Assembly (NCBI GenBank): GCA_029288615.1
Contig: JARIGV010000003.1
Coordinates: forward strand, 1,068-65,067
Reading direction: 5' to 3'
From: Candidatus Tayloriibacteriota bacterium
GTDB lineage: Bacteria; Patescibacteriota; Minisyncoccia; Phycocordibacterales; CAIRYW01
DNA: 64,000 nt
Each line of letters starts with the position of its first letter. Position 1 is the first letter of the stretch. Positions 12,444 to 63,658 of the stretch are shown here, piece by piece. The notes under the pieces were generated by a model. The model saw nothing but the letters and a program-made list of their open reading frames with translations, did not search any database and was not told where the DNA came from. The translations under genes and the position numbers were made by a program.

Positions 12444-13853
12444 TTAATCTTCTTTTATTTCATGAGCATCAGATCCTTTTGGATACACCAAAAGTGGCAC
12501 ATCCTCTAAAACCTTCTCAATGTCAGACGCAATTCGCCATTGTTCTTTAATCTCATCCGTTGAAACAAAGAGAGTTTGATCACCAGAGATTGCATCACGA
12601 AGAAGTTTTACATATGGATAGACAAAAGGTGTTGCATGTGAACTTTTATAATCGAATGAAAGTTTTTTCTTCTCGAGTTCATACTGAAATGCAGATTTTT
12701 TTGCATAAAATTCAATTGAAATTCCTTCTTTTGGTTGTATATGAAAAGTCAGTTTGTTTGTTGCTGGTACAAACATCGATTCATCAGATTCGTCGCTTGC
12801 CTTAAATGTAATTGAAATTTCTGCAAGAGTATCTTTAAGTGCTTTACCGTGCTCAATAAAAATCGGCACTCCTTTCCATCTTTCATTTTTGATCTCGAGT
12901 TCAGCTCTAAAATATGTTTCTGTGTCCGATCCTTCTTCAATACCTGGTTCATCCTGATATCCATCATATTGTGCGTGCGCAAAATTTTTAATGTCCTCTT
13001 TTACCTTAATTGACGAAAGAAGGGCCGTTCGCGCTTCTCGAATATCTTCCGCAGAAAATGAAAGTGGATTCTCCATCGTAGCGATCGCAAGCATTTGGAG
13101 AAGATGATTTTGTCCAACATCGCGAAGTGCGCCGAGCGCGTCATAGAGTTTTGCCCTTTCTGCAAGAGAGCCTTTTTCACTTGTCTCGTGCATTCGTACG
13201 CAAATTTCTGAAACATGTCGCTTAGACCAGAGTGGCTCAAAAAGTGCATTGCCAAAACGAAACGCAAGAATGTTCTGCAAGATTTCTTTTCCAAGATAGT
13301 GATCGATACGAAAAATCTGATCTTCTTCAAAAAGTTTTCCTAAGAGTTCATCAAGCATTTCAGCATGTTCTGCATCTTTTCCAAAAGGCTTCTCAACGAG
13401 CACACGCACCCAACTTAAAGTTTTGTCACCAAATTCTGGAGCACAAGGAATTGTAAGCCCGGAAGCAGAGAGATTACGGAACACTTTTTCATAAAGATCT
13501 GGAATGACTGCGAGATAGAAAAGCTTTCGTGTGCAAAGTCCCAGCATATCATCGCGCATTGTAAATTCATTCTTAAGCATGTCGTACGTTGCCTTGTCAT
13601 CAATGTCTCCCGATCGAAAGAAAAGATTTTCAACAAATTCTTTCGCAAGTTTTTTATCCTCTGTTTCAATTGAAGATAAAACTTGAGCTCGGAAATCTTC
13701 GTCAGCAATCGAGCGTCGTGACACTCCAAAAAGTGAAAAACCAGGAGCAAGAAATCCATCTTTATAAAGATCAAAAAAAGCCTGAGCAAGCTTTTTCTTA
13801 AAGAGATCTCCTGAAGCTCCAAAGATTACGATTGTAAGCGGATGATTATCCAT
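12444..13853 (-). CDS. zwf: Glucose-6-phosphate 1-dehydrogenase
   Basis: IVIFGASGDL NADP-binding motif and the G6PD active-site signature RIDHYLGKE; 469 aa. Confidence 0.85.
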   Translation of the reverse strand: MDNHPLTIVIFGASGDLFKKKLAQAFFDLYKDGFLAPGFSLFGVSRRSIADEDFRAQVLSSIETEDKKLAKEFVENLFFRSGDIDDKATYDMLKNEFTMRDDMLGLCTRKLFYLAVIPDLYEKVFRNLSASGLTIPCAPEFGDKTLSWVRVLVEKPFGKDAEHAEMLDELLGKLFEEDQIFRIDHYLGKEILQNILAFRFGNALFEPLWSKRHVSEICVRMHETSEKGSLAERAKLYDALGALRDVGQNHLLQMLAIATMENPLSFSAEDIREARTALLSSIKVKEDIKNFAHAQYDGYQDEPGIEEGSDTETYFRAELEIKNERWKGVPIFIEHGKALKDTLAEISITFKASDESDESMFVPATNKLTFHIQPKEGISIEFYAKKSAFQYELEKKKLSFDYKSSHATPFVYPYVKLLRDAISGDQTLFVSTDEIKEQWRIASDIEKVLEDVPLLVYPKGSDAHEIKED

Positions 13854-24047: not shown

Positions 24048-24725
24048 ATGGCAAATGCAATCAGCACTGGGGTCTTTGACCGCAGTGGATCAGACGAAGT
24101 CAGTGCGCAATCCTTCTATGGAGCGCTCACCCTTTCACTTCTGTGGGGGCTTATCGGAACTGCCGTGATCGCACACAAAGCGATCGAAATGCACTACAAT
24201 CCGACTTTGATGGGAATCATCATGCTCGGTCTGGTGGTACCCATTATCGGCATTCTTATCGCCGTGAACAGCGACAACCCGATACTCTCATTTATCGGCT
24301 ACAACATGATCGTGGTGCCCTTCGGCATAATCATCGGCCCAGCAGTCAACCACTACAGTCCAGACGTTGTGCGAAACGCTTTCGCTTTGACAGCGATGAT
24401 CACCTTCTTCATGGGCTTTATGGGAACTTGCTTCCCAGGGCTCTTTAAGAAAATGGGCGCACCGCTTTTCCTGGCACTCGGCGGACTCGTCATGGTCCGG
24501 TTCGCGCAGCTCTTCATCCCTGAACTCGCACACTTGCGTGTCGTTGATTACATCGGAGCGGGAATCTTCTCGCTCTACATCGGCTACGACATGTATCGCG
24601 CCAGTGAAGTTGCGAAAACCCTCGACAACGCCGTCGATATTTCGGTTGATCTCTATCTCGACATCATCAATCTCTTCCTGAATCTCCTAGAAATCCTAGG
24701 CAGCAGCGAAGAGGACGACGATTAA
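24048..24725 (+). CDS. Bax-inhibitor-1/YccA-family membrane protein
   Basis: 7-TM, 225 aa, conserved C-terminal region ...DIINLFLNLLEILGSS. Noticeably higher GC than surrounding genes. Confidence 0.55.
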   Translation: MANAISTGVFDRSGSDEVSAQSFYGALTLSLLWGLIGTAVIAHKAIEMHYNPTLMGIIMLGLVVPIIGILIAVNSDNPILSFIGYNMIVVPFGIIIGPAVNHYSPDVVRNAFALTAMITFFMGFMGTCFPGLFKKMGAPLFLALGGLVMVRFAQLFIPELAHLRVVDYIGAGIFSLYIGYDMYRASEVAKTLDNAVDISVDLYLDIINLFLNLLEILGSSEEDDD

Positions 24726-27667: not shown

Positions 27668-29320
27668 TTAAAGAAAGAGTTTTGCAAGTCTTATTTCAAA
27701 GAATGAAAAATTCGGACCAAGTATTGTTTTTACAGGTGAAAGTCTTCCTTCTTTATCTTTTGCTAAAGATTTTTTCCATGCTTCCGAGATTTTCTTAAAG
27801 CGAGTCGGTGGCAAATAAATATTCTTAAGGTAGAGAATGTCTATTTTTTCTCCTTCTTCAGTAAGCTTTTCAATATGTGAAAGCACTGTTTCTTTTGTAA
27901 GACCTCTCTCTTCAGCAATTTTCTCAAGTGATTTTTTCTCTTCGATGAGCTTCCATGTCTTATGATGTGTCGGCACTTCTTTTTCCTTTTTCACTTTCCC
28001 TAAAGAATTTTTAGAGACAAATTCTTCCTGCATTTTATCTATTTCTTTCTTTCCAGTTTCTTCAAGCCAACTTTCTGATTTCCCCGATTCTTTTCTAAAT
28101 GTTCGGTCCATGTCATGCGCTTCAGGATGGACAAGAAGAGCTGTCTTATTAAAACCCTTGAGTGAAAGCCCTTCAAGACGTCTCACACGTGAAAGCGCCA
28201 CATATCCCATGCCTGGTGTAAAAGAGCGAGAGAGGTCAATCCGTGCCGCATCAAGGCTCATTCCTTGGCTTTTGTGTATTGTAATTGCCCACGCCAAACG
28301 AAGCGGAATCTGTCTTATTTCCGCTCGGATTTTTCCATCTTCTTCAATTCTCCAGCTTTCTGGCACAACCGTAATTTTTCGAGAGTCTAAAGTTTTTACG
28401 ATTGGATTTCCGATATCATCAAAATCTACCACCTCACCAAGTGTTCCGTTCGAATACCCCTTATCAAAAGAATTTTTAACAAACATCACTTTCGCTCCAT
28501 ATTTAAGGAAAAGTCTTTCCGGTGCGAGACAGCTTTTTATAAGAGCCTCAACGAGTCGTGCATTCCCTTTTCTATCCATTTCATACACTTTTTCTCTGCC
28601 TCCAATTTTCGAAAGCTCTGTTTCGTTGAGTTCATCGACATTTATATTGTGTGTCGAAAGTTCTGTTGCAAAAGGTACAGCAAGCTCTTTTCCAACTCGC
28701 TCTTTAAGATGCGAAATAATTTCTTCAGTTACAGAATTTTCACGGATCGCATTAAGAACAGAAAGAAACACCGCATCATCTTGTCGATGAGATTCAGTAA
28801 GATAACAAATTCTAAAATTCATATCCTTCCAGATCTTTGATCTGTATGCGAAATGTCCTTCAGTTTCTCCCGGACGTGAGATCGGCGGGAGCTGGAAGAA
28901 ATCTCCACAGAGTACCACCTGAAGTCCGCCGAAAGGTTTATCGTTTCTTTTGAAGAATTTGCAAAGAGTGTCGAGAAGATCGAAACGAAAATGATGAAGC
29001 ATCGAGATCTCATCAATAATAAGCACTCTCGCCTCTTCATATCTTTTCCAAAGATGTTTTTTTGTCTCAAGATCATCGAGATCTCGTTCTGAAAGCGAGT
29101 CTTTGATGCCAAGCCCGCTCCATGCATGAATCGTCACGCCGCCAAGATGCGTCGCAGCAATCCCCGTCGATGCAGTCACCGCAACAGGAATTCCTTTTTC
29201 TTCCAAGTACGAAATATAAGCTCGAAGTGTGTGCGTCTTACCGCTTCCCGCCGCTCCTGTAAGAAAAACATTCTTTCCAGTCTTTAAAATTGTTAGTGCA
29301 TCAGCGCTTGTCATTGGCAA
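27668..29320 (-). CDS. PIF1-family SF1B DNA helicase with C-terminal helix-turn-helix extension
   Basis: Walker A GAAGSGKTH, LIIDEISML, Pif1 signature GDFFQLPPI, TIHKSQG, ALSRV; C-terminal about 120 aa (helicase-associated HTH-like). 550 aa. Confidence 0.75.
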   Translation of the reverse strand: MPMTSADALTILKTGKNVFLTGAAGSGKTHTLRAYISYLEEKGIPVAVTASTGIAATHLGGVTIHAWSGLGIKDSLSERDLDDLETKKHLWKRYEEARVLIIDEISMLHHFRFDLLDTLCKFFKRNDKPFGGLQVVLCGDFFQLPPISRPGETEGHFAYRSKIWKDMNFRICYLTESHRQDDAVFLSVLNAIRENSVTEEIISHLKERVGKELAVPFATELSTHNINVDELNETELSKIGGREKVYEMDRKGNARLVEALIKSCLAPERLFLKYGAKVMFVKNSFDKGYSNGTLGEVVDFDDIGNPIVKTLDSRKITVVPESWRIEEDGKIRAEIRQIPLRLAWAITIHKSQGMSLDAARIDLSRSFTPGMGYVALSRVRRLEGLSLKGFNKTALLVHPEAHDMDRTFRKESGKSESWLEETGKKEIDKMQEEFVSKNSLGKVKKEKEVPTHHKTWKLIEEKKSLEKIAEERGLTKETVLSHIEKLTEEGEKIDILYLKNIYLPPTRFKKISEAWKKSLAKDKEGRLSPVKTILGPNFSFFEIRLAKLFL

Positions 29321-42003: not shown

Positions 42004-42378
42004 TTATTTGTTGTTCTCCTTCCTTTTATGGATCATAATCTGATTTCCGTCAGGATCTTCCACGAGCACCATATGACATACTCCTGTTTCGTGCGGTTCC
42101 ATAAGGAACTTAGTCCCCGCATCTTTGAGATCTTTTACCGCTGCATCAAAATCTTCAACCTCGAGCGCTACTCCAGGACCAGTTTTTCCAGGATTAAAGC
42201 TTGGTGCACCTTTACCGATCGCAAGCGTATGATCACCCATGTAATATTCGATAAACACAGAATCTTCTCCTTCCCAGACAGATCCCGGTACAAGTCCGAG
42301 TGTCTTTTCATAAAATTCGCGCGCTTTTGGAATATTAACTATAGGGAAACAAACAAATGCAATTTCTTTTATTTTCAT
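42004..42378 (-). CDS. VOC (glyoxalase/bleomycin-resistance/dioxygenase) family protein
   Basis: 124 aa, beta-alpha-beta-beta-beta modules; C-terminal ...VLVEDPDGNQIMI.... Confidence 0.7.
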   Translation of the reverse strand: MKIKEIAFVCFPIVNIPKAREFYEKTLGLVPGSVWEGEDSVFIEYYMGDHTLAIGKGAPSFNPGKTGPGVALEVEDFDAAVKDLKDAGTKFLMEPHETGVCHMVLVEDPDGNQIMIHKRKENNK

Positions 42379-42435
42379 AGCTTAATTATAACAAAGAAAC
42401 ATCTGCGTCGAATGCAGATGTGGTAATAACTCAAA

Positions 42436-54263: not shown

Positions 54264-57200
54264 CTATTCTGTAGTCGCTTGATTATCTGGAGTATTTGAA
54301 ACTTGCTCACTCTGTGAATCATCTTGTACTGGGGTTTGAGAAGAATCAGGTGTTGATGTTGCTACAACCTCGGGAGTTGAGGTACTCAAAGTATCTGGCG
54401 AAACACTCATGATATCTGGAGTCGACGTTGATTCCTCAGTAGATGATGTCGCATCTTTAAAAGAAGAAGGTGCTATGTTTTGTTTCGAAAGAAGCTCCTG
54501 AAGTTCTTTTTCAGTGACACATGTGTCACCCACACACAATTTACTTGTATCCACTTCATGAGCAAAAATTTTGTCGAAAATTCCCTCCGCCAATGTATTC
54601 ACCTTCGCATAAAGCTCTTTCACCGCTTCAATGATTACAGCGGTAAGATGTGTGTAATCAAGAGTGTAGTAACCATTTGGTGCCAAATGTACCAAATCTG
54701 GGAATTGCTTTGCCACATCTTGTGCAATAAGACCATAATTTTTAGTTTGTCCGTTCATCATCGGATACATAGAAAGATACGTGCTATTCCAATTGAATGT
54801 CACTGCATCAAGCGCTGTGAGTTTATCGAGAGTCGATGTCGTATCTGATGCGACTGCAAGATTTGTAATATTTGTTTTAAGTCTCATATCTGAGAAAGAG
54901 CTCATACATCCATTTGAAAACTGTGAACAAATATCACCTGATGCAAAAATATCTCCGCCGACATCAAGCTTGTGAGTTGGCGACAAAACGCCAACTCCAA
55001 GATTTCCCGATGTTGTAAGGACCAATTGCGAACCAGTCGCATCATCTGCCCCTCCCCACATACCACTGACCGACAGCGCACTACTTGCTTTTGTAATGAA
55101 AACATTTCCAGAAGGACCATTGTTATCATTCACCAAAGGAAAATAACGAGTCGGAATGTCTTCGCCACTATCCATATGAACACTTAGATTGCCAAGATTG
55201 TGGTTAATAATAATGGCATTATTGAAATTACTTGCGGTACCAATAATAGTGACGGGATCAATTTCAACAGCGTAATGACCACTCGCCACACTATTATCAC
55301 TATCAAATTCAAACACTGTTGATCGACTACCATCACTTACTGTCACTGTGTCGCCGTCAGCGGGCTGAGTATTAATTTTTATTGATCCTCGTGCGGGTGC
55401 AGCCACACTTGTTACAGAATTCGGCATACCAGCATTGAAAGTAAGATTGCCATTAGAATTTCCAATTGCTCCATTTACATCGAGAGCATACGCAGGTGTT
55501 GCAGTACCAATACCAATATTTTCTCCTCCGGTGTATGTCACATATGTTCCATCATCTGTAAAAGGCGAAGTGCTTGCTGCTTTGCCATCAGAAAAGAGCG
55601 AGCCGTTATGATAAATATTTCCCGTGAAATTAATGTCTCCGCTCACATCAAGATTAAATCCAGGCGCAACATTATTCACACCAACAAATCCATTCGATAC
55701 CGTAAGCGGATGTACGACACCATCACTTGGCAGTGCCATGTGATCTGCAGGAATTATTTGGAGTGATTGGTTATTGCTCTCCCATGAAAGATGCAAACAC
55801 TCTCCCGTCGCATCAGAACCTACATAATGCTCGATCTTTATTGCAGTCCATTTATTTTTTACAAGATTTACCGTCGCGGTGTGTGCTGTACATGTCGCCT
55901 GGTCATTCCAGTCGTCGATCACCAAATTTCCATCAATCCACAAACGCACTCCATCGTCGGCGCTCAAATGAATCGTATACGTTTCGCTATAGTCTGCTTT
56001 GATAAATCCAGAGATATTTCCAGCGTAATTATTTTCTACACCTTGTGGAGCATAATCATCGACGTCGACTGGACCAAATTGCGTTGAAAGGATCATGCCG
56101 CCGATTTCAGGATTTGATCCTCCATACCAAAATGAATAGAGTCCGCCGACGTTACCGACAAATGATGTATTTGTTACTCCAAAAGTTCCATACACATCGA
56201 GTTTATGTAGTGGTGTTGTTGTACCGATACCGACATTTCCATTTCCTTTAAATGTCACATTTGGTGTGAAAGTACTTGAATCTCCGCCATAGCCAAATTG
56301 CATATCAGAACTCGAAGTGTCTGTGTACATCTGGAGCAAATAATTTTGGATTCCAAAACCATATGCTGCACCTGGAGCACCATCATACAAAGCAATCTTG
56401 TTACCGAGTGCGCTACCAAGAGAAAGTTTTGCGTTGGGGCTATTCGTACCAATACCAACATTCTCATTGCCGTTGTAATACACATTACTGTTATCATCCG
56501 TAAATGGTGATGATCCGCCGCCAGTAAAAGCCACACCATTTTGATAAAGGTTTCCTGAAAAATTCACATCACCATCAACATTGAGAGCATATGAACCCGC
56601 ATTCGTGCCAATACCAACTCCAGTACCAAAAAATCCCGTTCCATGCACCTGCAAATCCTCGCCATTTCCTGTACCCGTATTGTTGTCACCACCCCAAGCA
56701 TTTCCAACAAGAACATTTCCGTTTGTTGTCACCATAAATGGGAAACTTTCATCTCCACCGCCACCTGTGTGTCCTGGTGTATCGTACACAACAGACATCA
56801 CAGGTTTACCGTCTCGCGCATCAAACCGAAGAATGGAACCACCGAGACTTGTATCGCGATCTCCAAACTGTGCGAAGTTGAGTCCAAGATTGAGAGTCTG
56901 TCTATTTGATTCATCGTTCAAACCATCTCCGATAAATCCTCCGCGCAAATTTCCAATCGTACTTGGAGTTATATAAAAAGCATTTGCTTGTGTTATTCCG
57001 TTTACATCAAGTGACTCTGTCGGATTATTCGTGCCAATACCGACATAGTTACCTCCGTTGTAATAAACTTCTGTACCATCATCGATGAACGGCGAAGAAC
57101 TCGCGCCGAGTCCTGCATACAGCTCACCATTTTTATAAAGATTTCCTGTGAAATTAATGTCGCCGTTGACATCAAGATTGAAAAAAGGATGATCAGTACC

Positions 57201-58190
57201 AATACCGACATTTCCAAATGGAGTAAGTCTCATGATTTCTCTCAAACCAAAATCTCCCCACTCTCCCTGATTTGTACTGAACGCTAGCCCTGCTCCGCCA
57301 GGAGCGTATGCTACAGATTGAATACTTGCAGCCGGGTCAGCAAAAAAGGGCACATTCGTATCACGGAAAGCAATATTTGAACCTTCGTTGTCAGATCCAA
57401 AATTACTTTGAAGTGTAAGCAGTGTATTCTGGCCGCTAGATGTTGTTGCAATATCTAGCATCGATAATGGATTCGTCGTACCGATGCCGACAAATCCATT
57501 ATTCACGATATTCATCACAGGATTTCCATTTGTCGCAAAGACAATTTGTCCTTCGCCATTGAGATCACTGTCTGCTGCAAAAGAAAGATCGTCAGGAGTT
57601 GTGATACCCGTTGTTGTCGATGCAGATGTACCCATGAAAGTACCGTCCGGAAAATAAAGACCGTTGCCAAGTCCAGAAATTTTTAGATTACCGTTTACAT
57701 CAAGTGTGGCAGTTGGATTTGTCGTGCCAATACCAACACTTCCATTTGTATATGTCAGCACTCCTTCACCTTGATCTGTCCACTGACTTCCAGAAAAAGG
57801 AGTTCCGTTTTGGTAGAGAGTTCCTGTGAAATTGATATCGCCGTTTACATCAAGATTGTAGTTTGGCGCATTATTTCCAATACCCACAAACCCGTCGTTG
57901 TAATAAATACTTCCCTCGTTGTTTGACCATTGTGAAGAAATTGGCAGTGTTACTGTACAGTTATCTTCCGTCGGCGCACATTCTGGGTTTAGAGTTTCAC
58001 CAGGATTATACGGACTATTATTCCATGCTGCGGAAGCCCGAAAAGGCGTAAAAAGTATAAAAAATAAAAGTGAGAATATGAGTACTAAATGCTCTTTTTT
58101 GGGCATGTATCGAGTGCGAGAAAGTTTTTTCAAAAAACACCGAAGACACTTCTTCGGCCGGTCATCATGGGTTTTCTTTCGCAAGCTCAA
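54264..58190 (-). CDS. Giant (1308-aa) secreted surface protein: tail-fibre-like G(N)VGIGT/DVNGDINFTGxLYxNG repeats, PA14 domain, C-terminal peptidase-S74 intramolecular-chaperone domain, S/T/P-rich tail
   Basis: Signal/TM at the N-terminus; eight or more copies of the short repeat pair. PA14-like block ...GFIKADYSETYTIHLSADDGVRLWIDGNLVIDDW... (about nt 55700-55975). S74-like block SFSDMRLKTNITNL...LDAVTFNW...GLIAQDVAKQFPDLV...LDYTHLTAVIIEAVKEL (about nt 54545-54880). Acidic S/T/P-rich C-terminus. Confidence 0.7.
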   Translation of the reverse strand: MSLRKKTHDDRPKKCLRCFLKKLSRTRYMPKKEHLVLIFSLLFFILFTPFRASAAWNNSPYNPGETLNPECAPTEDNCTVTLPISSQWSNNEGSIYYNDGFVGIGNNAPNYNLDVNGDINFTGTLYQNGTPFSGSQWTDQGEGVLTYTNGSVGIGTTNPTATLDVNGNLKISGLGNGLYFPDGTFMGTSASTTTGITTPDDLSFAADSDLNGEGQIVFATNGNPVMNIVNNGFVGIGTTNPLSMLDIATTSSGQNTLLTLQSNFGSDNEGSNIAFRDTNVPFFADPAASIQSVAYAPGGAGLAFSTNQGEWGDFGLREIMRLTPFGNVGIGTDHPFFNLDVNGDINFTGNLYKNGELYAGLGASSSPFIDDGTEVYYNGGNYVGIGTNNPTESLDVNGITQANAFYITPSTIGNLRGGFIGDGLNDESNRQTLNLGLNFAQFGDRDTSLGGSILRFDARDGKPVMSVVYDTPGHTGGGGDESFPFMVTTNGNVLVGNAWGGDNNTGTGNGEDLQVHGTGFFGTGVGIGTNAGSYALNVDGDVNFSGNLYQNGVAFTGGGSSPFTDDNSNVYYNGNENVGIGTNSPNAKLSLGSALGNKIALYDGAPGAAYGFGIQNYLLQMYTDTSSSDMQFGYGGDSSTFTPNVTFKGNGNVGIGTTTPLHKLDVYGTFGVTNTSFVGNVGGLYSFWYGGSNPEIGGMILSTQFGPVDVDDYAPQGVENNYAGNISGFIKADYSETYTIHLSADDGVRLWIDGNLVIDDWNDQATCTAHTATVNLVKNKWTAIKIEHYVGSDATGECLHLSWESNNQSLQIIPADHMALPSDGVVHPLTVSNGFVGVNNVAPGFNLDVSGDINFTGNIYHNGSLFSDGKAASTSPFTDDGTYVTYTGGENIGIGTATPAYALDVNGAIGNSNGNLTFNAGMPNSVTSVAAPARGSIKINTQPADGDTVTVSDGSRSTVFEFDSDNSVASGHYAVEIDPVTIIGTASNFNNAIIINHNLGNLSVHMDSGEDIPTRYFPLVNDNNGPSGNVFITKASSALSVSGMWGGADDATGSQLVLTTSGNLGVGVLSPTHKLDVGGDIFASGDICSQFSNGCMSSFSDMRLKTNITNLAVASDTTSTLDKLTALDAVTFNWNSTYLSMYPMMNGQTKNYGLIAQDVAKQFPDLVHLAPNGYYTLDYTHLTAVIIEAVKELYAKVNTLAEGIFDKIFAHEVDTSKLCVGDTCVTEKELQELLSKQNIAPSSFKDATSSTEESTSTPDIMSVSPDTLSTSTPEVVATSTPDSSQTPVQDDSQSEQVSNTPDNQATTE

Positions 58191-58258: not shown

Positions 58259-58963
58259 CTATTTCTTTCCAGTAGCGATTTTTCGCAAAGTTTCTCGAAT
58301 TGCGATCTTCGGAAGCGATATTTTATTCGCTTCTACATAGTTCGCGATCTCTTTTTTAAAATTCTTTACACCCATGCGAAGCACCCACGAAACTGCTTTC
58401 GTAATAACGATTGGCTTCTCATGTTTAAGAGCTTCAACAATGCCAAGTGAAAAGTCGAGCACTCGCTTTTCTTTAGAGAAATTCAAAGGCTTCACCAGAT
58501 ACACCAATGCAGCACGACGCTTATTGATATTTTTATCTTTCGAGAGTTTTAAAATAAACCTCTCCCACTCTTTCCACCTCTCTATCATTTCTTCGCCTGT
58601 ATAAATTCCCGAGCAGAAAGAATCAATCTCTGCCCAGCCCACAAGTCCGTTTAGCCAGCGGTCTAAATCCGCAAACCGGACTTCCTTTCTCATATACGGA
58701 GAATATTCCAAAAGCATGCTCGCTAGTGTCTTTTCATCATATGAATGCCCGTCATAAAGCTCATCTACAAATGAAAGAAAATCTTTTTTTGAAATATCTC
58801 TGTTTTCCTTAAGCCAGCTCTTTGCGAGTACGCGGCGCTCCGGCACCGTAAACCCATAATAATAATGGGTACTCAAAAGATATCTTTCATTGTCGAAAAA
58901 AGTCTCCTTTGGCTTTCTGCTTTTAAAATGACTTATTATTTTTTTATGATGCGCTGACGACAT
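58259..58963 (-). CDS. DNA alkylation repair protein (AlkD/AlkC-like HEAT-repeat glycosylase family)
   Basis: 234 aa, all-alpha, HEAT-like; conserved ...KSWLKENRD... / ...WAEIDSFC... regions characteristic of the DNA_alkylation family. Confidence 0.6.
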   Translation of the reverse strand: MSSAHHKKIISHFKSRKPKETFFDNERYLLSTHYYYGFTVPERRVLAKSWLKENRDISKKDFLSFVDELYDGHSYDEKTLASMLLEYSPYMRKEVRFADLDRWLNGLVGWAEIDSFCSGIYTGEEMIERWKEWERFILKLSKDKNINKRRAALVYLVKPLNFSKEKRVLDFSLGIVEALKHEKPIVITKAVSWVLRMGVKNFKKEIANYVEANKISLPKIAIRETLRKIATGKK

Positions 58964-59402
58964 TTTCTATATAAAACTTTTCATTTCTTCGAAGCTCCGC
59001 TCGGCATTTTTTCCAGTCAGGAACAGTCCGCGCTACCAAATCCCAAAACTTTTCAGAGTGATTGAACTCTCCCAAATGACAAAGCTCATGGACGATGATG
59101 TAGTCGGAAAGTTTTAGAGGTAGCAGTGCGATCTTATAATTGAAATTTATATTCCCCTTTGCAGAACAGCTTCCCCAGCGCGACACTTGAGCTTTGATGA
59201 AGATCCGATTCCATTTAAATCCATAAAATTGGTTGAAATATTCAAGACGTCTGAGAGCAAGCTCTCGCGCGGCCTCTCTGTATTTTGCGAGCTCTTCTTT
59301 TGTCTTTTTGCTCTGCTTTCTTGGCTTCCTTGCACGCCTCCGCCGCACAATTCGTACCCTTTTTCTTCGAATGATCCACTTAAACATGCGAGTATCATAC
59401 AC
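58944..59402 (-). CDS. YgjP-like metal-dependent hydrolase (DUF45/M48-like; HExxH)
   Basis: ...YIIVHELCHLGEFNHSEKFW... zinc motif; basic N-terminus. The upstream part of the track ORF may be an over-extension. Confidence 0.6.
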   Translation of the reverse strand: MYDTRMFKWIIRRKRVRIVRRRRARKPRKQSKKTKEELAKYREAARELALRRLEYFNQFYGFKWNRIFIKAQVSRWGSCSAKGNINFNYKIALLPLKLSDYIIVHELCHLGEFNHSEKFWDLVARTVPDWKKCRAELRRNEKFYIENVVSAS

Positions 59403-59452: not shown

Positions 59453-59911
59453 ATGAATAAATTCCCGTTTCTTCCTACAGCACAGCCTGGAACACTTCCA
59501 ATCTACTCCACCACAAAACCCTCAAAGACCTTCACTGACGTGCTCTTCCGGGCTTCCGGACGATCCTCATCATGCATATGCGACCTCTGCGGGCGAATGC
59601 ATTTTGACACTGAGGGTGAAGGCATGGAGGATGAAGAGTATGCAGGCTGGCTTACCAATCAAAAAAGCGAACCCGAGCGGTATATCGGGACTGACGGCGG
59701 ACCCTCGCATGTCATCTTCGCTGGAGTTACAGTCATCTACGACTGCCCCTGCAATGTACTTCGCCCTTTTGAAGAGTTGTTCCTCAACCATCCTGGACTG
59801 ATCTGCGGATTGATCTTCGAGACCTCGAAGGAACGCCTGCGAGTCGCAAGCCGTGACAATCAAAATGCAGCGACGGCATTCGAGGCACTCAAACTTCTCC
59901 AGACAGTATAA
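59453..59911 (+). CDS. Hypothetical Cys-containing protein (higher GC)
   Basis: 152-aa ORF with CICDLCGR ... CPCN (possible zinc ribbon). An alternative 116-aa ORF lies on the opposite strand (59570..59920). Confidence 0.3.
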   Translation: MNKFPFLPTAQPGTLPIYSTTKPSKTFTDVLFRASGRSSSCICDLCGRMHFDTEGEGMEDEEYAGWLTNQKSEPERYIGTDGGPSHVIFAGVTVIYDCPCNVLRPFEELFLNHPGLICGLIFETSKERLRVASRDNQNAATAFEALKLLQTV

Positions 59912-59952
59912 TCGCGTCATCGACGCGAATTTTTATTTAATGAATATAAAAA

Positions 59953-59971
59953 ATGACGCCCTTGGCGTCAT
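59953..59971 (-). terminator. Hairpin (atgacgcc-ctt-ggcgtcat) preceded by A5 on the plus strand (= T5 after the hairpin on the minus strand)
   Basis: 8-bp perfect stem. Oriented to terminate a minus-strand transcript, but the nearest minus-strand gene 5' of it is only a gene fragment (see the pseudogene at 60080..60163). Confidence 0.5.
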
Positions 59972-60079
59972 TTAGAAAACTATTTCTTGTTCTTCTTTGG
60001 TTTCTTCTTTTCTTTTTTGTGTCCGTCTCCTTTTGCCATAATTATTTTTTATTGCTCTTAAACTAACATAGTTATTTTA

Positions 60080-60163
60080 TCATCTTTCTAAGAGTTCTAC
60101 TTCATATCCATCAGGGTCCGTAATGAAAGCCATCTTACGCTCTCCTTTTTGGAATTTTTCTCG
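60080..60163 (-). pseudogene. 3'-terminal remnant of a VOC/glyoxalase-I-like gene (encodes ...REKFQKGERKMAFITDPDGYEVELLER*)
   Basis: Reverse-strand reading frame bounded by in-frame stops at 60164-60166 and 60080-60082. Peptide matches the conserved C-terminus of glyoxalase I-type VOC proteins (AFxxDPDGYxIELxE). No upstream coding sequence remains; the helicase island begins immediately 5' of it. Confidence 0.5.
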
Positions 60164-60318
60164 TCAGTCGTCAGGCAACTGAGCAAAAAAAAGGGGGGTA
60201 AAGAAACACTGAAGCAGAGCACTGCGTAGTGCCAGATTACCTTATCATATCCTCCAACCTTAATTCTTGTGTGTAAAATTAGGCATTTTTATTTAAATAT
60301 TTGTTCTGGTTTGTTAAT

Positions 60319-63027
60319 TTATTCATTTAATTTTAGGAGCAATAACGCAATATCTTTCTTTGTATTTCTTTTTTCTAAGCCATTCAATATTTTATTTTCT
60401 GTTTCCGGAGTCCAATATATTTTTAGCTTCTCTTTTGCTCTCGTGATAGCTGTATAAAAAATATTATGTGTAACCATCTCCTCTATCTCATTAGTTATGA
60501 CAATTTTAACTGAATTGAATTCCAATCCTTGTGCCTTATGAATAGAGACAGCGTAAGAAACCTGGAATGGAACTATCGCTTTTGAAGATGATTCATCATC
60601 ATCTTCATCTGTACTAACATACATATTTACAGAAAAACGAATAATAGATTTACTTCCATCAGAAGTGTTACCAATTAACTGGAAGTCGTAGCCTTCGACA
60701 TCAAACTCATTTACTACCTTATCGATCTCAATGTCAAATTCAATTTTATTTGAGGTTTTTTTGATACCGACGATCTTACCCTTAAGGTTGTTATAAATAA
60801 GCGGTGAGTATCTGTTCATCTCATTGAACAGAACAGGATCTCCTATTTTGTAAGTATGCACGCCCCAATATATAGGGCTATTTTTATTATTACTCTGAAG
60901 GAATCTGTTGATGTTATTGATCCCATATAGACCGTCATAATTCAGACAGAGCACAATCTCGTCATCTTCAGCACTCACAAAGAAAGATTTGTCCAGCTTT
61001 ATGGAGTACTTATTCTTTGTAATATGTTCAAGAATATCATTTTCTATGTTTCTTACTTTATTCCAGAGAGTAATGAGCTTCTCGTTGGTACTTCGATATG
61101 GCTTAGTCAACTCAAATCTTGAGGTCTGAGGAACGAAAGATTGGGCTATGTTAAACCAATTTCCAAAGTTTATAGACTCAATCTGAAACACATCACCAAC
61201 CAGGACAAGAAGCTTGGAGTCTGCCTTTTCAAGTACCAATCGCATATCTGAATTACTGACGGTGCTACACTCATCAATGATCAATATATCGTAATCTGTA
61301 TCAGTATTTTTCAGTGAAATAAATTTACTGATTGTCTTATATGTGCAGTTAGCAGCTTGCACTTTTCTCCTAAGGTTGTCTACTGCGGGATTAGTATTTG
61401 CGAGATAAAGCTTCGTCTTATCATTAAAAAAGTTCGAGATGTGATTTATCATCGTCGACTTTCCCGTCCCTGCAGCACCGTACACCAATGCAACTTTTGA
61501 TTTTTCAAAAAGTTTTTTTAACGCATCCTTTTTCTCTTCGCAGTCAACGATGTGTGTGGATGTTTGAAGCCAAGAATCTATAGAATTTGAATAGTTTCTA
61601 ATACCTGAAGCAGAAAGATCGGTCAATTTTCTAATGATATATAACGCAGCTTCTTCATAACCTTTTATATATACATGGTCCTTAAACTTTTCCAACTTTC
61701 GATATTCATGTTTGAAATACAATAAAGAATTGTATTTCTCAATTAACATGTCGACATTTTTAAATCCTTTAGTTTCACTTATTGGAGTATAAAGCTGACC
61801 ATCAATCTCATTTTTATTCGTTATGAACTTTGCCAACATTTCATGTTCTCGTCCTGTCGCATCGATACAATCGAATAAGTCATGTATTCTTGGCTTATGA
61901 TTAAGCGGCGATGAATTAAAAGGCATTTCATCAAACGGGATACAGCCGTATTCCAGTTTTAAATTTGAAAGTTTGTCGCACTCATCAATACTGTACTGCT
62001 GTTTAATAATCTTATTATTAAGCCTATATAGGAGATATCTGGTTATATTTGTCCCTGGCTTCTTGGCTTTTATAAAAGCACGGACTTTATCCAATACGTC
62101 AAAGATATATTTAGTCTTTGCAGTACTAACTATCTTAGCCCTAACACTTTCGTAGTAATCATCTGACAAATCAATAAACTCTATAAGATTAAGTCCAGTC
62201 TTGGTCAAAAATCTCATCAGTTCCTTATACTCATTTGCATTTTGGATCTTAGGATCTTTTCCAAATATTTTTGCAAAATTATTCAACTCGCAAGGGCGAA
62301 TAGATACTTCCCAATCATTGATGATTTGAATGGGCATATTCTTGTCTATGATCTTAATATTGTCAGTAGTTAAGGACAGTTTAACTGCATAATTATCCGA
62401 AATATCTAACCTAGTGAAAGCGATCACTCTATCAAACTTACTTGTATTGTCGTTTGCGCGTGTAAAAGTAACTTCGTAGTAAACTTCGTAATTAACAAAA
62501 AAGGGCTTTATCTTCTGAATGTAAAATCTATCACTGTGAACACCTTTAGGGTCGACGGGTTTTAGTTGAATTATCTTTTCAGCGATCTTTTCGTGATACT
62601 CTTTGAGGACCGAGTCAGTATTCATTGGGAAAACATCTATATTCTTGAGCACTTCCAAGTCGTAAGTATTTTTTAGATACGACTTTATCTTCAACATATA
62701 CTCATAATACTTAAGCATCAATCTTTCTGAGTTTTCTTCGTCAGGGGTATAGTGAGAAATCGTCTTTTGAAGAAGCTTGTGAAAATTACTCAAAAATCGG
62801 AGTTCACCTCTAGTTTTAACGTAGGTTTCAGCTTTTTTTATATTCTCATATGAGTTGTCAAAATCTTGACCATTACTAAATGCTTTTAATGAGATGTGAT
62901 CAACAAAATTTCTAAGTTGTGACAAAATATTCTGCGACAATAACCCTCTCTCTGAAGTATCAAATCTGTCGATGTTGGCAGATATAGACTTGTCTATAGT
63001 TAAAATTTCTGTGTCAATCTTATTCAT
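60319..63027 (-). CDS. Large (902-aa) protein: uncharacterised approximately 500-aa N-terminal region fused to an SF1B (RecD/Pif1/Dda-like, AAA_30 + UvrD_C_2-type) helicase
   Basis: C-terminal half: Walker A GAAGTGKST, Walker B ILIIDECS, LVLVGDVFQIESI, TKPYRS, SIHKAQGLEFNSV, YTAITRAKEKL. N-terminal half: K/N/I/Y-rich, no motif recognised. The gene and its flanks (about 60170-63100) are markedly more AT-rich than neighbouring genes. Confidence 0.7.
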   Translation of the reverse strand: MNKIDTEILTIDKSISANIDRFDTSERGLLSQNILSQLRNFVDHISLKAFSNGQDFDNSYENIKKAETYVKTRGELRFLSNFHKLLQKTISHYTPDEENSERLMLKYYEYMLKIKSYLKNTYDLEVLKNIDVFPMNTDSVLKEYHEKIAEKIIQLKPVDPKGVHSDRFYIQKIKPFFVNYEVYYEVTFTRANDNTSKFDRVIAFTRLDISDNYAVKLSLTTDNIKIIDKNMPIQIINDWEVSIRPCELNNFAKIFGKDPKIQNANEYKELMRFLTKTGLNLIEFIDLSDDYYESVRAKIVSTAKTKYIFDVLDKVRAFIKAKKPGTNITRYLLYRLNNKIIKQQYSIDECDKLSNLKLEYGCIPFDEMPFNSSPLNHKPRIHDLFDCIDATGREHEMLAKFITNKNEIDGQLYTPISETKGFKNVDMLIEKYNSLLYFKHEYRKLEKFKDHVYIKGYEEAALYIIRKLTDLSASGIRNYSNSIDSWLQTSTHIVDCEEKKDALKKLFEKSKVALVYGAAGTGKSTMINHISNFFNDKTKLYLANTNPAVDNLRRKVQAANCTYKTISKFISLKNTDTDYDILIIDECSTVSNSDMRLVLEKADSKLLVLVGDVFQIESINFGNWFNIAQSFVPQTSRFELTKPYRSTNEKLITLWNKVRNIENDILEHITKNKYSIKLDKSFFVSAEDDEIVLCLNYDGLYGINNINRFLQSNNKNSPIYWGVHTYKIGDPVLFNEMNRYSPLIYNNLKGKIVGIKKTSNKIEFDIEIDKVVNEFDVEGYDFQLIGNTSDGSKSIIRFSVNMYVSTDEDDDESSSKAIVPFQVSYAVSIHKAQGLEFNSVKIVITNEIEEMVTHNIFYTAITRAKEKLKIYWTPETENKILNGLEKRNTKKDIALLLLKLNE

Positions 63028-63110
63028 GATTTGGAATTATGTTTGTACACTACCATACAAAGTTGAAGAAAAAATGAAGAAAAGATAAAGTAGGACTTGG
63101 CAAGATCCTT

Positions 63111-63314
63111 ATGTTTAAAGCTCCCAACAAGGCCACTGTAGAGCCTGAATCTACATCTCAAACAAAGCCTTCAACTTTTTTTGAAGACCTGGAGAAACGA
63201 CTCCGGAGCCCGGAATATATCGCTTCTGTCGAGGAGATTCGGCGGCGGCAATGGGAAGATTTCGCTCGAGGTGAGCGGGAGTTTGAGGAATGGTGTGGCA
63301 AACCAGATCGCTAA
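63111..63314 (+). CDS. Hypothetical small acidic protein
   Basis: 67-aa ORF, GC-richer than the adjacent island. No motifs. Confidence 0.3.
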   Translation: MFKAPNKATVEPESTSQTKPSTFFEDLEKRLRSPEYIASVEEIRRRQWEDFARGEREFEEWCGKPDR

Positions 63315-63376
63315 GGCACTTTGTGCCTATTTTTTATAAATGTACTTGGGAGTTGATAAAAAAACCGAAAGGTGTA

Positions 63377-63658
63377 ATGTGTACCGAAAAGCTCTCTATG
63401 GACCAAAAACCGACCGCAACCGCGGAAAAGCCTCAAGCTGAAAAACCTCACGTTACCGTCCTCTCACCGGTGTTGGAGAAATTCCAAAGCGGTAAAGAGT
63501 TGTCACAGCTCCTACCTGCAACTTACGAGCTCCGAGCTGGTGATATCATTCCGGCCTGGTGGCACGGTGAGGAGCGCGGCACTGCGGAAATCATCAACGT
63601 CGAGCCGGCTGAGAAAAATAAATCGATGGCTCGAGTGACATACAAAAAGGCATCCTGA
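63377..63658 (+). CDS. Hypothetical protein
   Basis: Start trimmed to the ATG preceded by aaaggtgtaatg (SD-like); 93 aa; no motifs. Confidence 0.3.
   Translation: MCTEKLSMDQKPTATAEKPQAEKPHVTVLSPVLEKFQSGKELSQLLPATYELRAGDIIPAWWHGEERGTAEIINVEPAEKNKSMARVTYKKAS

Follow-up and report, generated by a model that had tools for sequence, protein, structure and literature searches.

The 64,000-nt stretch of contig JARIGV010000003.1 analyzed here (assembly GCA_029288615.1 of a Candidatus Tayloriibacteriota bacterium; hereafter the window) carries on its reverse strand a gene for a 902-aa helicase (60319..63027) which, judged by its profile match, is a member of PDC-S53, an already catalogued and purely computational candidate family of phage defence. 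On balance, and with modest confidence, we read it as an intact, horizontally acquired accessory gene encoding a self-contained anti-phage or anti-mobile-element protein, in which a helicase and OB-fold sensor would be combined with a possible HEPN-like effector. The anti-phage or anti-mobile-element function, taken by itself, is probable, and a HEPN-type catalysis by the N-terminal helical bundle, for which a predicted structure was used, is doubtful.

The match to the PADLOC model PDLC05035 (PDC-S53) covered the protein over its whole length (E = 0, 1334.8 bits, aa 1–897 against profile positions 1–891 of 900), the start methionine of the open reading frame (ORF) was conserved among the homologues, and these were numerous and 63–88% identical over their full length. 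The position and length of the ORF had been given exactly in an initial annotation of the window; its proposal that the protein could be an undescribed member of a defence family had to be abandoned in view of the full-length match, as PDC-S53 is among the 145 phage defence candidates (PDC) that were predicted on the basis of their embedding within BREX, DISARM, and Type I restriction-modification (RM) systems (Payne et al. 2024, 10.1101/2024.01.29.577857). The window gene shares with the rest of the family its single-gene organization and relatives that lie in or beside RM systems, no structural difference being found; the window copy is distinguished by its position among non-defence genes of a Patescibacteria genome. 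What appears to be new here is the map of the N-terminal domains, the missing canonical HEPN motif, the association with a serine recombinase in a common module, and the occurrence of such a gene in a Patescibacteria genome.

Horizontal acquisition and base composition

The strongest evidence for horizontal acquisition came from the comparison with a host gene, since the helicase was 82–88% identical to its closest copies, found across phyla in metagenome-assembled genomes (MAGs) of Saccharibacteria and Gammaproteobacteria, whereas for the G6PD of the host, a deep Patescibacteria/Parcubacteria-type organism, non-self relatives did not exceed 62%, those with a name, in Taylorbacteria and Parcubacteria, reaching only 45–48%. 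Homologues were distributed over at least eight phyla (Saccharibacteria, other Patescibacteria, Gamma- and Alphaproteobacteria, Bacillota, Bacteroidota, Actinomycetota, Campylobacterota, and Victivallaceae). At the nucleotide level, the closest relatives were 75–78% similar, and this similarity broke off at the limits of the ORF, give or take a few bases (at 60326–60353 in blastn against these loci); the closest relatives (84–88% identity) occupied different loci (rpsB-tsf/M20 peptidase, HSP20/alr, or beside a recombinase) with no synteny. Copies were also carried by five or six plasmids, and full-length ones were present in 2 of 50,697 phage records. By these sequence comparisons, the helicase gene is horizontally acquired, and the claim of the initial annotation that it is a single horizontally acquired gene, with a pattern of the defence type, was borne out by its patchy distribution, the lack of synteny and of a constant partner, neighbours from defence islands, and carriage on mobile elements.

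The base composition, on which the initial annotation had relied, was less telling. No other 2.7-kb stretch of the window is as poor in GC as the helicase gene (33.8% vs. 40.5%; mean of non-overlapping windows 40.7%, standard deviation 1.4%), in agreement with the proposed AT-rich island with sharp shifts, but the roughly 150 nt on each side of it, counted as part of this island, have 31–37% GC, which is ordinary for intergenic DNA of the window (36 ± 6% on average), so that the compositional island consists of the gene alone and the argument was overstated. The estimate of about 30% GC for the gene was too low (measured, about 34%), and that of 45–50% for its neighbours too high, as typical genes of the window have about 41% and only two small abutting ORFs, themselves atypical, reach 49–51%. 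The GC shortfall of the helicase gene lies in codon positions 1 and 2 (z = −2.9 and −1.9), because the protein is rich in K, N, I, and Y, while the GC content at third codon positions (GC3) is host-like (z = +0.1); its synonymous codon usage was nevertheless an outlier for a length of 902 codons. The same tendency was seen family-wide, with a higher AT content in the gene than in its surroundings at 34 of 36 loci (mean difference −6 points, p = 3e−7; largest gap −24 points, in Campylobacter). The low-GC island is largely an effect of amino acid composition, which calls for caution in future scans of this kind.

Domain organization of the protein

The C-terminal part of the protein (aa 495–890; 60358..61545, reverse strand) is a superfamily 1B (SF1B) helicase core of the RecD/Dda/TraI type, in which motifs I, Ia, II, III, IV, V, and VI are all present (among them GAAGTGKS517, IDECS585, GDVFQ611, YR644, SIHKAQGLE828, and YTAITRA858), as had been noted initially for the last 400 or so residues. 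Its best matches were to SF1B members, and it was matched by Viral_helicase1, AAA_30, and UvrD_C_2 in Pfam, by RecD2, RecD, and TraA in NCBIfam, by RecD2 (3e1s) and RecD (1w36_D) in the PDB, and by phrog_325 ('Dda-like helicase') in PHROG. The motor would presumably move with 5'-3' polarity. The NCBIfam RecD2 alignment spans aa 397–876, and an assignment as RecD2 orthologue was rejected on the equivalog model TIGR01448, with 132.7 bits against a curated cutoff of 500. A second SF1B helicase is encoded elsewhere in the window (PIF1-like with HTH_40, 550 aa, 27668–29320, reverse strand); its architecture is unrelated to that of the PDC-S53 gene.

Residues 1 to about 460 had no match in Pfam or NCBIfam, in line with the initial description of the N-terminal half as unrecognizable. 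This half is as conserved as the motor, and an exhaustive search retrieved the N-terminal region in 943 clusters at 50% identity; the architecture can be considered fixed, because essentially every complete protein has about 900 aa and carries the region at residues 1–470. AlphaFold models were obtained with good scores (aa 1–480: predicted local distance difference test score (pLDDT) 86.5, predicted template modelling score (pTM) 0.83; aa 156–480: pLDDT 90.2), and four segments could be delimited. The first (aa 1–155; 62563..63027, reverse strand, as for all segments) is a predicted HEPN-like helical bundle with the near-invariant residues R39, E43, S91-H92, R102, K106, and Y107. It is followed by a predicted five-stranded beta domain (aa 165–243; 62299..62535) resembling an OB fold (the fold of SSB, PriB, and RPA), to which two methods gave OB-fold matches, MCM-N-terminal-like ones among them, and in which aromatic and basic residues are conserved (Y169, K172, K174, Y184, K197, R200, F204, Y213, and W239). 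A helical region (aa 245–345; 61993..62295) has winged-helix-like similarity, to the ScpB- and OmpR-type domains, and the connector behind it (aa 346–490; 61558..61992) gave no fold match, its C-terminal part aligning with the pre-motor region of RecD2. This connector contains an invariant loop, C362-x-P-F365-D/E366-x2-P369, together with the conserved H377 and E396 (aa 362–396, in the region 61840–61941), which could form a second functional site or an interface with the motor. No PD-(D/E)xK, HNH, or PLD fold or model was detected in the protein, and neither was a relaxase or primase fold.

Among the PDB entries with which the bundle was compared, several are counted as HEPN in the HEPN census. 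The conserved polar residues of the bundle were compared with those expected of HEPN domains across 92 divergent members. R39 (91/92) and E/D43 (88/92) both lie in the modelled helix 2 (residues 24–50), the latter providing the conserved acidic residue that HEPN domains have in this helix. The modelled helix 3 ends at residue 90 and is directly followed by S91-H92, with H92 (90/92) at the position given for the catalytic histidine in the HEPN census, while R102 (77/92), K106 (73/92), and Y107 (90/92) mark the start of helix 4. The residue four positions upstream of H92 is Q87 (Q in 63/92 and R in 3/92), and since this glutamine stands in place of the arginine, the canonical HEPN motif Rx4-6H is not present and reads Qx4H instead. 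An RNxxEH-like motif in helix 2 was rejected as the canonical site, its histidine (H44) being kept in only 30/92 and its topology being wrong. According to the same census, variant families with relocated catalytic residues exist, and domains of the HEPN clan that lack the motif serve for binding; it is conceivable that the bundle holds a HEPN variant site with a relocated arginine.

Neighbourhoods of the relatives and of the window gene

In order to find recurrent neighbours, all ORFs within 4 kb of the gene were clustered for 36 non-redundant loci. No conserved partner gene was found, as no neighbour family recurred in more than 4 of them, and the four loci in question belong to related Campylobacter genomes with nusB and pyrF in common. 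The surroundings of the homologues included a MmeI-type RM system with an nSTAND NTPase, a SNF2/MmeI-like methyltransferase with Lamassu, McrBC, RM, and transposases, and, in another case, CBASS, a ParB-methyltransferase, YhcG, an XhoI RM system, and ThsB-TIR/caspase genes. A textbook case is locus L019 (5432–12293), where the homologue separates the HsdR and HsdM genes of a Type I RM operon, HsdR lying 86 bp upstream of it and HsdM 88 bp downstream; those of L016 and L026 adjoin HsdM or HsdR. The embedding from which the family was predicted, or a position beside such a system, was seen in these relatives and not at the window locus. The check proposed in the initial annotation, whether homologues occur in defence islands or variable regions, thus turned out in its favour, with RM, Lamassu, McrBC, CBASS, and prophage accessory genes as neighbours.

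Other copies were located on mobile elements. Both phage copies lie at the accessory or lysogeny end of the genome, together with recombinases, a Type IIS RM pair or methyltransferases, and a repressor, and are transcribed divergently from the replication genes. The copy of C. beijerinckii is part of an integrase-bearing, prophage-like element and follows Phage_rep_org_N and DnaC genes, and on a L. plantarum plasmid the helicase gene comes directly after rep. In the phages Terrisporobacter TPDSL_ph1 and Erysipelothrix phi1605, a 278-aa ORF (83% identical between the two; L012:5146-5982 and L053:6146-6982) was observed 18 nt upstream of the helicase gene. It was discarded as a general partner, since no other locus has it, and could be a partner confined to this subclade.

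In the clade of the window gene, the helicase gene and a convergent large serine recombinase gene make up a module of about 4.3 kb (L010:31-4377, L016:2952-6944, and L055:31-4367), which was common to L010/L011, L016, and an IMG/VR contig at 78–81% nucleotide identity within differing surroundings. One apparently solitary copy (L001) retains a 47-aa remnant of the recombinase (12718–12858, 79% identity); the window has none, tblastn with the large serine recombinase giving no match in the window, the spacer downstream of the helicase gene included. This spacer (60164..60318, reverse strand, 155 nt from the stop codon onwards) shows no similarity to the flanks of the homologue loci. Direct or inverted flanking repeats, a tRNA gene, and Rfam elements were likewise not found in the window, and the locus consequently lacks the att-type repeats, tRNA target, and recombinase of an integrative element, in contrast to the relatives that carry the large serine recombinase.

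Beyond the spacer, the truncated VOC gene reported initially for the left edge was recovered as a C-terminal VOC/glyoxalase remnant of 27 codons (60080..60163, reverse strand), identified by its translation behind in-frame stops, ending in KMAFITDPDGYEVELLER before the stop codon and matching the very end of the Pfam Glyoxalase profile weakly (E = 0.15, positions 105–121 of 121). An intact VOC/glyoxalase paralogue (124 aa, 42004..42378, reverse strand) has the same DPDG ending; the longer antisense ORF at this place (42028–42426, forward strand) is probably spurious. Large serine recombinases commonly integrate within genes, and the truncated VOC gene would fit an insertion by such an enzyme; the remnant is possibly the scar of the insertion of the helicase gene. 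The N-terminal half of the VOC gene was not found to the right of the helicase gene within the window, and an uninterrupted empty site could not be located through the neighbouring DNA-alkylation repair gene, of which the reference genomes contain no relatives.

A 19-aa, lysine-rich ORF, MAKGDGHKKEKKKPKKNKK (59980..60039, reverse strand), which may be a micro-protein or a chance reading frame, separates the VOC remnant from a strong hairpin terminator. The terminator itself (59951..59973, reverse strand) has a 10-bp stem with 5 GC pairs and a T-run, and since it is situated downstream of the small ORF, the VOC remnant, and the helicase gene alike, it could be the end of the helicase transcript; its existence had been noted correctly, and its description as an orphan is unclear given the ORF that precedes it. 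On the other side of the gene, the 83-nt intergenic region (63028..63110, reverse strand, 31% GC) is the presumed promoter or 5' untranslated region, in which no consensus sigma-70 site was found.

Several further genes of the window were recorded. Three small GC-rich ORFs flank the region on both sides (59453–59911, 63111–63314, and 63290–63658, all on the forward strand; 49–51% GC); they are outliers in codon usage (GC3 0.52–0.54, z > 2) and had no match in Pfam, PADLOC, or PHROG scans. The stretch from 59.4 to 63.7 kb looks like a patchwork of foreign genes with opposite composition. A YgjP-like metallopeptidase ORF (58944–59402, reverse strand), which shares 20 nt with the beginning of the DNA-alkylation-repair gene, matches only positions 88–207 of a 207-position profile and may be truncated at its N-terminus. 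The gene of a Bax1-I/BI-1 family membrane protein (24048–24725, forward strand) has the highest GC3 of the window (0.65) and the worst fit in codon usage, and may be foreign. A surface protein of tail-fibre-like type in this Patescibacteria genome is encoded at 54264–58190 (reverse strand); it has 1308 aa, a PA14 domain, a C-terminal Peptidase_S74 domain (endosialidase/tail-fibre intramolecular chaperone), and many G-I-G-T…LDV-G repeats.

Possible function and rival explanations

If the protein acts in defence, the SF1B motor together with the OB-fold and winged-helix-like domains would load onto, and translocate along, single-stranded or forked DNA arising from phage or plasmid replication, and we infer a role as sensor for the helicase and the OB fold. 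This engagement would either disrupt replication directly or license the N-terminal HEPN-like domain, whose polar set (R39/E43, S91-H92, R102/K106/Y107) would then serve as the effector, most plausibly as an RNase causing abortive infection. In the clade of the window gene, delivery would have been as the sole cargo of the 4.3-kb large-serine-recombinase module, with a later loss of the recombinase that left the bare gene and the truncated VOC gene in the window. A number of observations weigh against defence by a HEPN-like effector. Searches of the literature found neither an experiment on PDC-S53 nor a mention of it, the available validation studies covering other PDC families. The canonical HEPN arginine is replaced by Q87, and the histidine of the RNxxEH-like alternative in helix 2 is kept in fewer than a third of the members compared (30/92). 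Foldseek searches of the PDB with the predicted N-terminal structure gave no significant match, a Pfam scan of 27 PDC-S53 members and a sequence-profile search of the PDB gave none for the N-terminal region at E ≤ 10, no HEPN family being among the Pfam matches, no defence genes could be recognized next to the window copy, and some relatives adjoin replication genes or recombinases, which fits a role in the life cycle of a mobile element.

This last role is the main rival explanation, in which the helicase would replicate or process an excised serine-recombinase element, plasmid, or prophage, comparable to the Cch of SCC elements or to conjugative relaxases with their RecD-like helicase domains, and solitary chromosomal copies would be leftovers of decayed elements. 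The two-gene module of the closest clade and the recombinase remnant in L001 point in this direction, as do the positions after rep on the L. plantarum plasmid and after Phage_rep_org_N and DnaC in C. beijerinckii, the PHROG and NCBIfam similarity to Dda-like and TraA/TraI helicases, and the MCM-N-terminal-like matches in the OB region. However, most loci have no recombinase, rep, or other mobile-element gene close by, the solitary copies are intact, with high conservation and no sign of decay, copies reside inside a Type I RM operon and in defence islands, and both phage copies adjoin RM and repressor genes and are oriented away from the replication module; moreover, the full-length gene is very rare among phages (the two records given above) and lacks a detectable relaxase or primase fold, so we regard this explanation as unlikely. 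A slightly better chance, still a low one, is given to defence by the helicase alone, with ATP-driven stripping or unwinding of phage replication intermediates and an N-terminal half that would be a non-catalytic scaffold for nucleic acid binding or oligomerization, without RNase activity or abortive infection. Every helicase motif is intact, the Rx4-6H motif is missing, HEPN-clan domains in this state are known as binding domains, and the OB and winged-helix-like folds suggest DNA binding; on the other hand, R39 (91/92), H92 (90/92), Y107 (90/92), and E43 (88/92) form a cluster of near-invariant polar residues whose conservation equals that of the Walker motifs, which suggests an active site more than a scaffold. 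A housekeeping role as a RecD2-type repair helicase of the host, with a composition that only reflects the amino acid make-up, is effectively refuted. The annotation of homologues as 'ATP-dependent RecD-like DNA helicase', the host-like GC3, and the GC deficit in codon positions 1 and 2 would agree with it, yet the equivalog score is 133 bits against the cutoff of 500, relatives are not syntenic and are far more similar across phyla than the housekeeping genes of the host, copies exist in phages and plasmids, a truncated VOC gene adjoins the helicase gene, and the codon usage is an outlier for the length of the gene. The initial annotation had named a housekeeping N-terminus with syntenic orthologues as the outcome that would speak against it, and no such picture emerged from the RecD2 score and the lack of synteny.

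Defence by a self-contained sensor and effector, the reading that we favour, can be placed among known systems. Nhi joins an N-terminal nuclease to an SF1 helicase in one protein, and Hna has an N-terminal SF2 helicase followed by a C-terminal nuclease. Like Nhi and AbiO, the latter predicted to be an SF1B helicase, PDC-S53 is a single polypeptide with an N-terminal accessory or effector part and a C-terminal SF1 helicase, found on mobile elements; it differs from them in its N-terminus, which is predicted to consist of a HEPN-like bundle and an OB fold and gave no PD-(D/E)xK match in the PADLOC scan or the fold search. A nuclease-helicase of the Nhi, Hna, or AbiO type, the parallel drawn in the initial annotation, was rejected in the absence of any nuclease fold or model, and membership in Hna also because the helicase is here SF1B and C-terminal and no Hna model was matched. 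DARNA (PD-T7-3) has an N-terminal HEPN RNase with an R117x4H122 motif, activated by single-stranded DNA bound by the phage single-stranded DNA-binding protein. It resembles the predicted PDC-S53 protein in its N-terminal HEPN-type bundle of about 155 aa, the large nucleic-acid-sensing region that follows, and the concept of coupling the sensing of single-stranded DNA to an RNase, while its motif is canonical and it has no helicase, as opposed to the Qx4H and the SF1B motor as would-be sensor in PDC-S53; no sequence similarity between the two was detected in the PADLOC scan. HEPN-DUF499 proteins (Hma/'BR' systems) and DUF4145-UvrD/SF-I fusions likewise carry an N-terminal HEPN domain on an NTPase motor in defence loci, and HEPN-ATPase/helicase fusions of RM-like systems were proposed to be backup suicide RNases; these are multi-gene systems with recognizable HEPN families, in contrast to the stand-alone PDC-S53 without a Pfam HEPN match. 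RecD2 (TIGR01448), an SF1B repair helicase, finally, aligns with PDC-S53 over the motor core and into the pre-motor region (aa 397–876), whereas the N-terminal 400 aa of PDC-S53 are unrelated to it and the gene is non-syntenic and horizontally mobile. In its most specific form, the proposal would be a new single-protein abortive-infection system, in which an SF1B/OB sensor of phage replication DNA switches on a hitherto unknown HEPN family with the arginine moved to helix 2 (R39/E43) and the histidine in its canonical place (H92), and which spread as the sole cargo of a minimal serine-recombinase element, defence-poor Patescibacteria included; that all of this holds together is improbable.

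The domain map (HEPN-like bundle, OB fold, winged-helix-like region, and SF1B motor) turns a blank N-terminus into a set of testable residues (K523, H92, R39, E43, and Y107), and the bundle could belong to a new HEPN variant whose active site has been relocated. The 4.3-kb recombinase and helicase module suggests a route by which such genes move between distant phyla. If PDC-S53 is indeed a working defence, it would be a compact one-gene system comprising about 940 clusters at 50% identity, spread over at least eight phyla, phages, and plasmids, and reaching the ultra-small Patescibacteria.

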